Origin: Escherichia coli
Lineage (GTDB): Bacteria > Pseudomonadota > Gammaproteobacteria > Enterobacterales > Enterobacteriaceae
Assembly: GCF_045037415.1 (NCBI RefSeq)
Contig: NZ_CP173438.1
Direction: 5' to 3' (one strand)
Length of the DNA: 64,000 nt
Shown: positions 3,143 through 44,485 of the stretch, piece after piece
How the letters are laid out: every line of letters begins with the position of its first letter
Numbering within the stretch: the stretch's first letter is position 1
Notes under the pieces: model-generated
What the model was told of the DNA's origin: nothing
Seen by the model: the letters and a program-made list of their open reading frames with translations, nothing else
The model's database searches: none
Program-made: the position numbers and the translations under genes

Positions 3143-3265
3143 GCAAGTTCGGAATTTTCCCAGCAGTTATTGCTAACCTTTGTGAGGTAGATGAGAAAAA
3201 ATATCGGCAGAAAAAGCAGGAAGTTGAGAAAAAGAAAATGCCCGACTAAGCGGGCATTCAGGGAA

Positions 3266-3543: not shown

Positions 3544-4332
3544 ATGCAGGCCGAAATCCTTCTCACCCTTAAGCTCCAACAAAAATTATTCGCCGACCCG
3601 CGCCGCATTTCGCTACTAAAACACATTGCGCTTTCCGGTTCCATTAGCCAGGGAGCGAAAGATGCCGGTATCAGCTATAAAAGCGCCTGGGATGCCATTA
3701 ACGAGATGAATCAGTTAAGTGAGCATATTCTGGTTGAGCGCGCAACAGGCGGTAAAGGTGGAGGCGGCGCAGTACTGACCCGCTATGGTCAGCGACTGAT
3801 TCAACTCTATGACTTACTGGCGCAAATCCAGCAAAAAGCCTTTGATGTGTTAAGTGACGATGACGCCCTGCCGCTGAACAGCCTGCTGGCCGCGATCTCA
3901 CGTTTTTCACTGCAAACCAGCGCCCGTAACCAGTGGTTCGGTACCATCACCGCTCGCGATCATGATGACGTTCAACAGCATGTTGATGTCTTACTGGCTG
4001 ATGGAAAAACACGCCTGAAAGTCGCAATTACCGCACAAAGCGGCGCGCGTCTGGGGCTGGATGAAGGCAAAGAAGTGTTGATATTGCTAAAAGCGCCGTG
4101 GGTAGGTATTACTCAGGACGAGGCGGTCGCGCAAAACGCTGACAACCAATTACCGGGTATTATTAGTCATATTGAGCGCGGCGCAGAGCAGTGCGAAGTA
4201 TTAATGGCGCTACCCGACGGGCAAACACTGTGCGCCACAGTGCCGGTAAATGAAGCGACTTCTCTTCAGCAAGGGCAGAATGTCACGGCCTACTTTAATG
4301 CCGACAGCGTGATTATCGCCACGCTGTGCTAA
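3544..4332 (+). CDS. modE: molybdate-responsive transcriptional regulator
   Basis: 262 aa; N-terminal HTH and C-terminal Mop/TOBE domains; divergent from modABC. Confidence 0.95.
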   Translation: MQAEILLTLKLQQKLFADPRRISLLKHIALSGSISQGAKDAGISYKSAWDAINEMNQLSEHILVERATGGKGGGGAVLTRYGQRLIQLYDLLAQIQQKAFDVLSDDDALPLNSLLAAISRFSLQTSARNQWFGTITARDHDDVQQHVDVLLADGKTRLKVAITAQSGARLGLDEGKEVLILLKAPWVGITQDEAVAQNADNQLPGIISHIERGAEQCEVLMALPDGQTLCATVPVNEATSLQQGQNVTAYFNADSVIIATLC

Positions 4333-16392: not shown

Positions 16393-16468
16393 TGGTGGGT
16401 CGTGCAGGATTCGAACCTGCGACCAATTGATTAAAAGTCAACTGCTCTACCAACTGAGCTAACGACCC
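16393..16468 (-). tRNA. lysQ: tRNA-Lys(UUU)
   Basis: 76-nt exact match to recalled E. coli tRNA-Lys incl. CCA; symbol by position in operon. Confidence 0.93.
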
Positions 16469-16501
16469 CTTGCGGGATTATGCTGCTTTAATCATTCAGG
16501 A

Positions 16502-16577
16502 TGGTGGGTCGTGCAGGATTCGAACCTGCGACCAATTGATTAAAAGTCAACTGCTCTACCAACTGAGCTAACGACCC
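16502..16577 (-). tRNA. lysZ: tRNA-Lys(UUU)
   Basis: identical 76-nt tRNA-Lys copy. Confidence 0.93.
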
Positions 16578-16625
16578 ATACGGGTGTTACCTGAAAGATT
16601 TCTACTCGGAACCAATGTTTAAAAT

Positions 16626-16701
16626 TGGTGGGTCGTGCAGGATTCGAACCTGCGACCAATTGATTAAAAGTCAACTGCTCTACCAACTGAGCTAACGACC
16701 C
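16626..16701 (-). tRNA. lysY: tRNA-Lys(UUU)
   Basis: identical 76-nt tRNA-Lys copy. Confidence 0.93.
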
Positions 16702-16704
16702 GAG

Positions 16705-16780
16705 TGGTGGGTGATGACGGGATCGAACCGCCGACCCCCTCCTTGTAAGGGAGGTGCTCTCCCAGCTGAGCTAATCACCC
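16705..16780 (-). tRNA. valZ: tRNA-Val(UAC)
   Basis: 76-nt match to recalled E. coli tRNA-Val(UAC) incl. CCA; 3-nt spacer to next tRNA. Confidence 0.9.
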
Positions 16781-16831
16781 GATACTGCGCTGGATACTAC
16801 AAACTACTTCCACCGAACCCACCGTAATCAG

Positions 16832-16907
16832 TGGTGGGTCGTGCAGGATTCGAACCTGCGACCAATTGATTAAAAGTCAACTGCTCTACCAACTGAGCTA
16901 ACGACCC
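16832..16907 (-). tRNA. lysW: tRNA-Lys(UUU)
   Basis: identical 76-nt tRNA-Lys copy. Confidence 0.93.
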
Positions 16908-16909
16908 GG

Positions 16910-16985
16910 TGGTGGGTGATGACGGGATCGAACCGCCGACCCCCTCCTTGTAAGGGAGGTGCTCTCCCAGCTGAGCTAATCACCC
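16910..16985 (-). tRNA. valT: tRNA-Val(UAC)
   Basis: 76-nt tRNA-Val copy; 2-nt spacer to lysW. Confidence 0.9.
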
Positions 16986-17020
16986 GATACTACGCTGGAT
17001 ACTACAACTAACTATGTTAG

Positions 17021-17096
17021 TGGTGGGTCGTGCAGGATTCGAACCTGCGACCAATTGATTAAAAGTCAACTGCTCTACCAACTGAGCTAACGACCC
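17021..17096 (-). tRNA. lysT: tRNA-Lys(UUU)
   Basis: identical 76-nt tRNA-Lys copy; first gene of the operon. Confidence 0.93.
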
Positions 17097-17260: not shown

Positions 17261-18052
17261 TTACATCGCGTTCAGACGTTTTTGCGCCTGTTTAGCGCCA
17301 TCAGTACCAGGGTATTTACTGATAACCTGCTGGTATACGGCTTTCGCTTTTGCGGTGTCACCTTTGTCCTGCATGATGACGCCGACTTTAAACATCGCAT
17401 CTGCAGCCTTCGGTGACTTCGGATAGTTTTTCACTACCGAAGCAAAATAATACGCCGCATCATCTTTTTTACCCTTGTTGTAGTTTAACTGACCCAGCCA
17501 ATAATTGGCGTTTGGCAGGTAAGTTGAATCAGGGTAATTTTTGATGAAATTCTGAAATGCCACCATTGCGTCATCCTGGCGGGATTTATCCTGCACCAGC
17601 GCAATAGCTGCATTGTAATCCGTGTTTGCATCACCGCTTTTCACCGGCGCGCCAGCATTCGAAGTACCAGCATCAGCTGTCGGCGTCGTTGATGCCACCA
17701 CACCGCTTTGATCGCCGCTGGTTGATTGCGCCGCTGCACCACCGCTGCTGAGGCTGTCGATCTGCAACAGGATCTGCTTTTGCCGCTCCACGACCTGATT
17801 CAGTTGATACTGATTTTCCTGAATCTGACCACGCAGGGAATCAATATCGGATTGATTATCAGAGAGTTGTTGCTGGAGTTGGGTTAAAAGCTGGCTGTGA
17901 GCATTAGAAATACGCTCAAGTTGAGTGACGCGGTCTTCGACCGAGCCTGAGCCGACACTACTGATTGGTGCCTGAGCAAAAGCGGCCCAGGGGGCCGCTA
18001 TACCAACCAGTAACGACAGACTCAATAGTTGATGTCTGAAGTTACTGCTCAT
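17261..18052 (-). CDS. cpoB: cell division coordinator CpoB (TPR periplasmic protein)
   Basis: 263 aa; signal peptide, coiled-coil, C-terminal TPR; last gene of tol-pal cluster. Confidence 0.95.
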   Translation of the reverse strand: MSSNFRHQLLSLSLLVGIAAPWAAFAQAPISSVGSGSVEDRVTQLERISNAHSQLLTQLQQQLSDNQSDIDSLRGQIQENQYQLNQVVERQKQILLQIDSLSSGGAAAQSTSGDQSGVVASTTPTADAGTSNAGAPVKSGDANTDYNAAIALVQDKSRQDDAMVAFQNFIKNYPDSTYLPNANYWLGQLNYNKGKKDDAAYYFASVVKNYPKSPKAADAMFKVGVIMQDKGDTAKAKAVYQQVISKYPGTDGAKQAQKRLNAM

Positions 18053-18061
18053 GCAATTCTC

Positions 18062-18607
<546 letters not shown>

Positions 18608-33906: not shown

Positions 33907-34629
33907 ATGGGACACAAACCCTTATACCGGCAGATTGCCGATCGCATTCGTGAGCAGATTACGTGCGGCGAGCTAAAACCTGGCGATGCGTTACCCACTG
34001 AATCGGCATTACAAACAGAGTTTGGCGTCAGCCGGGTTACGGTGCGCCAGGCTTTGCGCCAGTTAGTCGAGCAGCAGATCCTCGAAAGCATCCAGGGCAG
34101 CGGGACTTACGTCAAAGAAGAGCGGGTCAATTACGATATTTTTCAGTTAACCAGTTTTGATGAAAAACTGTCGGACCGTCACGTCGAAACACATAGTGAA
34201 GTCCTGATATTTGAAGTAATTCCGGCTGACAATTTTCTTCAGCAGCAGCTGCAAATTAGCGAGCAGGATCGTGTGTGGCATGTGAAGCGCGTGCGCTATC
34301 GCAAGCAAAAGCCGGTGGCGCTGGAAGAAACCTGGATGCCGCTTGCATTATTCCCGGATCTCACCTGGCAGGTCATGGAAAATTCGAAATATCACTTTAT
34401 TGAAGAAGTGAAGAAGATGGTTATCGATCGTAGCGAACAGGAGATAATTCCCCTGATGCCCACGGAAGAGATGAGCCGTCTGCTTAATATCAGCCAGACT
34501 AAGCCGATTCTTGAAAAAGTATCGCGTGGATATTTAGTTGATGGCCAGGTGTTTGAATATAGCCGCAACGCTTTTAATACTGATGACTATAAATTTACCC
34601 TGATAGCGCAGCGAAAATCGCCGCGATAA
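33907..34629 (+). CDS. mngR: GntR/HutC-family transcriptional repressor
   Basis: 240 aa; N-terminal winged HTH, C-terminal UTRA domain. Confidence 0.93.
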   Translation: MGHKPLYRQIADRIREQITCGELKPGDALPTESALQTEFGVSRVTVRQALRQLVEQQILESIQGSGTYVKEERVNYDIFQLTSFDEKLSDRHVETHSEVLIFEVIPADNFLQQQLQISEQDRVWHVKRVRYRKQKPVALEETWMPLALFPDLTWQVMENSKYHFIEEVKKMVIDRSEQEIIPLMPTEEMSRLLNISQTKPILEKVSRGYLVDGQVFEYSRNAFNTDDYKFTLIAQRKSPR

Positions 34630-34631
34630 GC

Positions 34632-34732
34632 ATAAAAAAGGCCATCATAAGATGGCCAACCATGTCGAAACCGACAGCCCTTCGCCCTTCCTGTAGGGGG
34701 AAGCGGCGAGGGCTATTTCTTATTACAGATAT
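34632..34732 (-). ncRNA. sdhX: 3'-UTR-derived sRNA region (SdhX/RybD) with intrinsic terminator
   Basis: about 100 nt after the sucD stop ending in GGCCATC-ttat-GATGGCC plus U-run on the minus strand; matches recalled SdhX locus. Confidence 0.55.
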
Positions 34733-35602
34733 TTATTTCAGAACAGTTTTCAGTGCTTCACCGATATCAGCCAGGCTGCGAACGGTTTTCACGCCTGCGG
34801 CTTCCAGAGCAGCGAATTTCTCATCCGCAGTACCTTTACCACCGGCAATGATGGCACCCGCGTGGCCCATACGTTTGCCTTTCGGCGCAGTCACACCAGC
34901 GATGTAACCCACAACTGGCTTGGTGACGTGCTCTTTGATGTACGCAGCCGCTTCTTCTTCAGCGCTACCGCCGATCTCACCGATCATCACGATCGCTTCA
35001 GTCTGCGGATCTTTTTCGAACATTTCGAGAATATCGATAAAGTTAGAGCCAGGGATCGGGTCGCCGCCGATACCAACACAGGTCGACTGACCGAAACCGT
35101 AATCCGTGGTCTGTTTAACCGCTTCATAGGTCAGCGTACCGGAACGGGAAACGATACCCACTTTACCTGGTTTGTGAATGTGACCCGGCTGGATACCGAT
35201 TTTGCATTCCCCCGGGGTGATAACGCCTGGGCAGTTCGGGCCGATCATACGAACGCCTGCTTCATCCAGTTTCACTTTCACCGTCAGCATATCCAGCGTC
35301 GGGATGCCTTCAGTGATGGTGATAATCAGTTTGATGCCTGCATCGATAGCTTCCAGAATGGAGTCTTTGCAGAACGGTGCTGGTACGTAGATAACAGAGG
35401 CGGTAGCGCCAGTGGCAGCAACAGCTTCACGCACGGTGTTAAACACCGGCAGGCCGAGGTGGGTAGTACCGCCTTTACCTGGGGTTACGCCGCCAACCAT
35501 TTTAGTGCCGTATGCAATGGCCTGTTCAGAGTGGAAAGTCCCCTGGCTACCAGTAAAGCCCTGGCAGATAACCTTGGTGTTTTTATCAATTAAAATGGAC
35601 AT
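34733..35602 (-). CDS. sucD: succinyl-CoA synthetase alpha subunit
   Basis: 289 aa starting [24 protein letters not shown]. Confidence 0.98.
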
Positions 35603-41068: not shown

Positions 41069-41255
41069 CTGCATTTCTTTTGTAGGCCGGATAAGGCATT
41101 CACGCCGCATCCGGCGCTGTTTGCCTGATGCGACGCTTGCGCGTCTTATCAGGCCTACGGTTTCTGCATTTCTTTTGTAGGCCGGATAAGGCGTTCACGC
41201 CGCATCCGGCACTGGTTGCCTGATGCGACGCTTGTGCGTCTTATCAGGCCTACGG
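41069..41255. repeat. BIME: two tandem ~95-bp copies, each a REP pair
   Basis: 41069-41163 and 41164-41258 near-identical; each holds GCCGGATAAGGCGTTCACGCCGCATCCGGC and GCCTGATGCGACGCTTGCGCGTCTTATCAGGCCTACGG. Confidence 0.85.
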
Positions 41256-44102: not shown

Positions 44103-44485
44103 ACGAGGACTCCTGCGAGAAGTGAAAGCACGACAGTAATAACAAAGGAGATTTTGGCGGAGCGTTTACCCGCTTCGAATGTTTCTTCCAGATAGCCAAA
44201 ATCCATCATCATGTGGCGAATACCTACGACGACGTGATATGCCAGAGCGGTAAGGATGCCCCACATGATAAATTTGACGAAGAAGCTGCCCATAATCGCG
44301 GAAGCTTGCTCGAAACCTTCAGGGGAAGAGAGGCTGGTACCCAGAAGCCACAGCAGGATGCCCACTGCAACAAAGGTGATCACACCGGAAACGCGATGGA
44401 GAATGGACGCTATCGCCGTGACGGGGAACCGGATGGTCTGTAGGTCCAGATTAACAGGTCTTTGTTTTTTCACATTTCTTATCAT
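44096..44485 (-). CDS. sdhC: succinate dehydrogenase cytochrome b556 subunit
   Basis: 129 aa; start at [15 protein letters not shown]. Confidence 0.97.

Follow-up and report, generated by a model that had tools for sequence, protein, structure and literature searches.

The sRNA SdhX (also called RybD) depends on Hfq and is released from the ~10-kb sdh-suc mRNA through RNase E cleavage (Miyakoshi et al., PMC6393394), and a review draws the same picture, with Hfq-bound forms of ~101 nt and ~38 nt. Its seed, UUCGACAUGGU, lies directly 5' of the terminator and pairs with the AUG-UCG of ackA, for which the 38-nt form (SdhX2) suffices (PMC6393394). In E. coli, the variable 5' region also forms a 14-bp near-perfect duplex with the Shine-Dalgarno (SD) region of katG, an interaction tested with a C34G mutation and a compensatory change, and the base G62 additionally targets fdoG (PMC6393394). 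Salmonella SdhX (SdhX1, 87 nt; SdhX2, 38 nt) shares with its counterpart described here the RNase E-mediated release from the sucD 3' end, the core seed CGACAU, the ackA target, and the terminator with its U-tail; however, it lacks the katG-pairing region and carries a U instead of G62, and therefore it does not regulate katG or fdoG but regulates fumB and yfbV instead (PMC6393394). Our statements on Hfq dependence, RNase E processing, the mapped 3' end, and the targets repressed (ackA, katG, and fdoG) rely on published work in K-12 and Salmonella.

The sRNAs CpxQ, NarS, SroC, and MalH are built on the same plan, i.e., they are released from an mRNA 3' end by RNase E, use the intrinsic terminator of that mRNA as an Hfq module, and have their seed just 5' of that terminator. 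They differ from SdhX in their parent operons and targets, and SdhX is unusually variable outside its short seed.

The locus analyzed here lies within a 64,000-nt stretch of an E. coli chromosome (NZ_CP173438.1; hereafter, the window). There, the minus strand encodes sucD (34733..35602, a 289-aa ORF with its TAA stop codon at 34735-34733), the last gene of sdhCDAB-sucABCD, and the plus strand encodes the convergent gene mngR (33907..34629, a 240-aa ORF with its TAA stop codon at 34627-34629); both genes carry these names in annotated E. coli genomes that are 100% identical to the window at this locus. Between them lies the full-length ~101-nt form of sdhX (34632..34732, minus strand), whose positions are numbered such that SdhX position p equals window position 34733-p. 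The 241 nt around sdhX are 100% identical to many complete E. coli genomes, again between genes annotated as mngR and sucD. In K-12 MG1655, the ncRNA gene sdhX (b4764; 765050-765150) directly follows sucD and leaves a 2-nt gap to the mngR stop, and its coordinates map base for base onto window positions 34732..34632.

Our own analysis covered the position and identity of this RNA, its seed, the structure and covariation of its terminator, the conservation of its target sites, and allele frequencies. Alignment gave 97/101 identical positions between the window SdhX and K-12, with differences at positions 36, 46, 83, and 100 only, and positions 47-82, including the seed and G62, were identical. 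Position, length (101 nt), distance to the mngR stop (2 nt), seed, G62, terminator stem, and U6 are common to the two RNAs, which differ by the substitutions U36C (in a loop, within the katG-pairing stretch), U46G, G83U (in the terminator loop), and G100A (after the U-tract). Read in the sucD direction, the 103 nt between the sucD and mngR stops comprise a long bulged hairpin, a weak 4-bp hairpin, and a 7-bp terminator stem-loop, and the RNA folds at -45.3 kcal/mol (z = -5.0 relative to shuffled controls). A search of the sdhX region against Rfam returned no family at the gathering score, and at a relaxed E-value it returned chance-level matches only (RyhB, E = 2.1; sroE, E = 1.6). Membership in SdhX is therefore based on synteny, sequence, and published features. 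The sequence-only reading had named this interval SdhX (RybD), which is borne out by its position, the 97/101 identity to b4764 with seed and terminator stem unchanged, the intact published seed, the intact terminator, and an invariant ackA site. Collectively, we regard it as almost certain that 34632-34732 is the already described SdhX, that its core ackA circuit is predicted to be unchanged and its repression of katG weak or absent, and that the terminator serves sdh-suc and is probably not shared with mngR.

Several other elements were observed in the window. An 81-aa ORF on the plus strand (34662..34907) runs antisense to sdhX and sucD and is probably a mechanical ORF. Two Rfam matches to naRNA4, a REP-type, nucleoid-associated RNA, are located upstream in the sdh-suc region (41085-41155 and 41180-41250, plus strand; 79.6 and 86.8 bits). 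On the minus strand, a cluster of seven tRNA genes occupies 16396-17096, and the CpoB/ybgF RNA thermometer is matched over its full length at 18023-18161 (153.7 bits).

The intrinsic terminator and Hfq-binding module occupies 34634..34657 on the minus strand, where a stem-loop (34657..34640) is followed by U6 (34639..34634). It reads GGCCAUC-UUAU-GAUGGCC, i.e., a 7-bp G+C-rich stem with a 4-nt loop, then U6, with the minus-strand tail UUUUUUAU. A strong minus-strand intrinsic terminator had been proposed ~100 nt after the sucD stop, and, in agreement, a consensus scan of 34400-34900 found this U6-bearing structure as the sole terminator-like site; the same scan found no promoter-like (sigma-70-like) site in that interval. 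Term-seq in K-12 recorded a very strong 3' end on the SdhX strand at 765148 (Adams et al., PMC7815308, supplementary file 1), which corresponds to the last U of U6 at window position 34634. The operon transcript would thus end at this stem-loop, with U6 reaching to 34634, and Hfq would bind the terminator and the U-tail. The 101 nt contain just one RN↓WUU motif, GG↓UUU, between G62 and U63 (34670..34671, minus strand), and a cut there would leave a 37-nt product ending at U99. We consider this motif the probable RNase E processing site in this strain. In the proposed pathway, RNase E would cut the long mRNA into a ~101-nt species that starts from the sucD stop and a ~38-nt species, the latter probably through cleavage after position 62.

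The sequence-only reading had raised the concern that variation in the seed would alter the regulation of acetate metabolism. This concern is moot, since the seed (SdhX 64-74, core CGACAU; 34659..34669, minus strand) is as published and identical to that of K-12, and the variation sits in the E. coli-specific katG-pairing stretch instead. The seed is complementary to the ackA start codon and its UCG second codon, and its duplex with ackA CCAUGUCGAG is calculated at -17.1 kcal/mol, equally for the window and K-12 alleles. The ackA segment from -30 to +30 is exact in 5421/5424 complete E. coli genomes, among them carriers of the window allele (SK1144, SA186, 4/1-1, 4/4, 2/0, 4/0, AR_0089, and AR_0086). 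Since the ackA site is invariant and both alleles form the same duplex with it, the acetate-kinase circuit in this strain is predicted to be unchanged: the single-stranded seed would pair with the ackA start codon region and block AckA translation, which would tie acetate metabolism to the expression of the TCA-cycle operon. G62, the base that pairs with C-13 of fdoG, is also present (34671). As a separate observation, the seed of one genome, E. coli FDAARGOS_944, is interrupted by IS1 (3225-3233 and 4003-4011 of that locus), with a 9-bp target duplication, CCATGTCGA, that is the complement of UCGACAUGG. There, the terminator is parted from sucD and the 5' part of SdhX, a copy of the duplicated seed sequence is left on each side, and sdhX is naturally uncoupled from its operon.

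The only new element at this locus is a common natural allele in the E. coli-specific module that targets katG. The katG-pairing stretch, GCUUCCCCCUACAG (SdhX 29-42; 34691..34704, minus strand), carries the derived C36 at 34697, and the linked derived G46 is at 34687. When SdhX 29-42, GCUUCCC[U>C]CUACAG, is aligned with katG CUGUAGAGGGGAGC, U36C introduces a central A·C mismatch, so that the published 14-bp duplex is reduced in the window to 13/14 pairs, split into 7 and 6. The calculated hybridization energy is -20.3 kcal/mol for the window allele versus -25.1 kcal/mol for K-12. U46G acts on the accessibility of the same stretch, since it replaces a G29·U46 wobble with a C30-G46 pair, and the cost of opening SdhX 29-42 is 7.9 kcal/mol in the window versus 6.3 kcal/mol in K-12. 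The net predicted SdhX-katG pairing is -18.8 kcal/mol for K-12, -15.6 kcal/mol for the laboratory C34G mutant, and -12.4 kcal/mol for the window allele (C36, G46); the predicted loss of pairing is thus larger than that of the published mutant. The loop and 5' arm of the 5' hairpin would normally serve as a second, E. coli-specific module that pairs with the katG SD region. Because U36C falls in this module and U46G strengthens the hairpin, nearest-neighbor thermodynamics predict that the SdhX of this strain represses katG weakly or not at all. An interrupted duplex of 7 bp and 6 bp may, with the assistance of Hfq, still be able to repress katG.

A change on the target side could in principle restore the pairing. 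This candidate was rejected: the 45-nt SD segment of katG is exact in 5425/5425 complete E. coli genomes, and the katG leader is identical in K-12, 4/1-1 (which carries the sdhX allele of the window), 536, and AF22. In the two C36/G46 carriers for which both loci were read (4/1-1 and SF-468), the katG leader was unchanged or the same allele. Given that the leader and its SD site are invariant, the U36C mismatch is uncompensated. The possibility that U36C and U46G compensate for each other was likewise rejected, as position 36 lies in the loop and the change at 46 turns a G·U wobble into a shifted G-C pair. Of the 5,426 complete E. coli genomes, 704 (13.0%) carry C36, in every case accompanied by G46, and no more than two genomes differ from the 35-nt window allele by a single mismatch. 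The two substitutions are linked by descent and not by pairing.

The 5' hairpin that contains both positions (SdhX 19-57; 34676..34714, minus strand) is the Escherichia-type variable module, and it folds at -24.6 kcal/mol in the window and -22.0 kcal/mol in K-12. E. albertii has U36 and U46, and hence the C36/G46 state of the window is derived; in contrast, at positions 83 and 100 the window carries the E. albertii state (U83/A100). In the E. albertii locus (3870-3971), which has no mngR downstream, the C28-G47 pair is replaced by U28-A47; because this change is compensatory, it points to selection acting on the 5' hairpin. The SdhX tail of that genome contains the end of another convergent ORF (3968..4312, minus strand). 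E. coli 536 (44148-44248 of the locus compared) has a third hairpin allele, U36, G45, G46, which keeps full complementarity to katG and has a stronger hairpin, with a predicted opening cost of 8.0 kcal/mol versus 6.3 kcal/mol in K-12.

The module formed by seed and terminator is retained in 24 sequences that span about 15 genera. All positions of the terminator stem remain paired (100%) in these genera, and 4/7 pairs have changed on both sides; none of 500 shuffles (0/500) reached the observed covariation score, and slid controls scored far lower. The sequence 5' of the seed is highly variable across genera, as described in the literature, and Pantoea, Erwinia, Photorhabdus, and several others have a plain terminator only, without the seed. 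We also considered whether the 5' hairpin is conserved because it terminates mngR. This was rejected, given that the hairpin is kept without mngR in E. albertii and in E. coli 536 and SF-468, that a 5' hairpin of some kind occurs in most Enterobacteriaceae whether or not mngR is present, and that one Enterobacter locus (L020) has mngR and no hairpin. Terminating mngR is at most a possible secondary role of the 5' hairpin in E. coli.

The sequence-only reading had also placed the start of the terminator hairpin 3 nt after the mngR stop and had the two transcription units converge on one shared structure. The convergent geometry stands, but the distance does not. The stem starts at 34640, 10 nt after the last mngR stop base (34629), the A6/U6 run starts at 34634, the fifth nt after the stop, and it is only the annotated RNA end at 34632 that is 3 nt off. 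To work in both directions, an intrinsic terminator requires its stem to be followed by a U-tract on each strand. Ju et al. reportedly described such terminators at convergent gene pairs in 2019, and the hairpin studied here resembles them in being a single G+C-rich hairpin that is placed between convergent genes and flanked by an A-tract and, on the opposite side, a U-tract. It also lies closest to mngR, whose stop and the SdhX 3' end are 4 nt apart, and a polymerase leaving that gene would encounter this structure first. Read on the mngR strand, the hairpin follows A6 and has nearly the same stability (-11.5 kcal/mol). MngR homologues lie directly against the SdhX terminator in Kluyvera and two Enterobacter genomes, and in one of these genomes (L020) no further hairpin precedes sucD. 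Against sharing, the tail on the mngR strand, AACCAUGUCG, has 2 U among 10 bases and is complementary to the conserved seed. Being fixed by the seed, this tail cannot be U-rich and no U-tract can evolve there; the SdhX hairpin is therefore not a canonical bidirectional terminator. Moreover, the 3' end mapped in K-12 is on the SdhX strand only. K-12 Term-seq (Adams et al., PMC7815308) contains no mngR-strand 3' end here, although mngR may have been too weakly expressed in the tested media, and neither the Adams 2021 tables nor the TERMITe supplements list a mapped 3' end for mngR. The terminator is also fully conserved in E. coli and E. albertii genomes that lack mngR, and about 28% of complete E. 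coli genomes lack it at this junction. The claim of a shared terminator is thus not supported as stated: it probably is not shared, and we consider it very unlikely that it acts as a bidirectional intrinsic terminator that also ends the mngR transcript.

The mngR transcript could instead read through this first hairpin, with intrinsic termination at the SdhX 5' hairpin in its antisense form (34676-34714), which would give it a 3' UTR of about 90 nt that is fully complementary to SdhX. As judged by folding, the antisense 5' hairpin with the U-rich tract AUUUCUUAUU directly after it (34715..34724, plus strand) is a better-looking candidate for intrinsic termination of mngR: the plus-strand 34676-34714 folds at -27.1 kcal/mol, its tail AUUUCUUAUUAC has 7 U in 10, and a weak, chance-level Rfam alignment (E = 1.6) places a terminator-like 3' end there. 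However, K-12 Term-seq maps no 3' end there either, a perfect-stem terminator scan made no call, the hairpin persists, with its compensatory change, in genomes without mngR, and in other genera where mngR is convergent, the hairpin is either missing or lacks a U-rich tail on the mngR strand. Hence, we regard termination at this second hairpin as rather unlikely. Our preference, although it falls somewhat short of an even chance, is that mngR has no dedicated terminator and that weak antisense transcription into sdhX and sucD is ended by Rho or by collision with the strong transcription of sdh-suc. Antisense sucD RNA would be untranslated and thus a Rho substrate, and Rho acts on read-through in the opposite direction. 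Indeed, Term-seq combined with bicyclomycin identified a Rho region on the SdhX strand at K-12 765604 (Adams et al., PMC7815308, supplementary file 2), which corresponds to about window position 34178, antisense within mngR and downstream of the SdhX terminator. Its location implies measurable read-through of the SdhX terminator, which is Rho-terminated inside antisense mngR, and shows that Rho polices the convergent junction. The same study (PMC7815308) reports no Rho region on the mngR strand, which counts against this preferred reading, but mngR expression may have been too low to be scored. Our order of preference for mngR termination is accordingly Rho or collision, then the second hairpin, then the shared hairpin.

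The junction itself is variable. Homology to the window breaks off precisely at the SdhX 3' end or the mngR stop (34627-34634) in 1,544 of the 5,426 complete E. coli genomes, and mngR was replaced in all three such genomes that were read, i.e., by a convergent RtcB-family gene in strain 201609 and by a co-oriented TPR-protein gene in SF-468 and 536. As judged from these genomes, a variable segment borders on the SdhX terminator. In Kluyvera genomosp. 1 and the two Enterobacter genomes, the genes for the MngR homologues (70-74% identity) run toward sucD and stop right at the tail of the SdhX terminator, and hence the tight abutment of mngR and sdhX is not restricted to Escherichia.

The occurrence of SdhX at this locus is already known; it is the textbook 3'-UTR-derived sRNA linking the TCA cycle to acetate metabolism, to which the finding adds nothing new. 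For annotation, labeling the terminator as shared or bidirectional is unwarranted without mngR 3'-end data, because the conserved seed rules out a U-tract on the mngR strand. In contrast to the seed, the ackA site, and the katG site, which are essentially invariant, the katG-targeting module is polymorphic in E. coli. With nearly even chances, as estimated from the predicted pairing energies, the C36/G46 allele uncouples the catalase-peroxidase KatG from the TCA-cycle operon. If true, this would represent a natural, within-species rewiring of the secondary target of an sRNA while its founding target, ackA, stays fixed. The polymorphism offers a cheap natural test of whether sRNA 3' UTRs gain new targets through regions other than the fixed seed.
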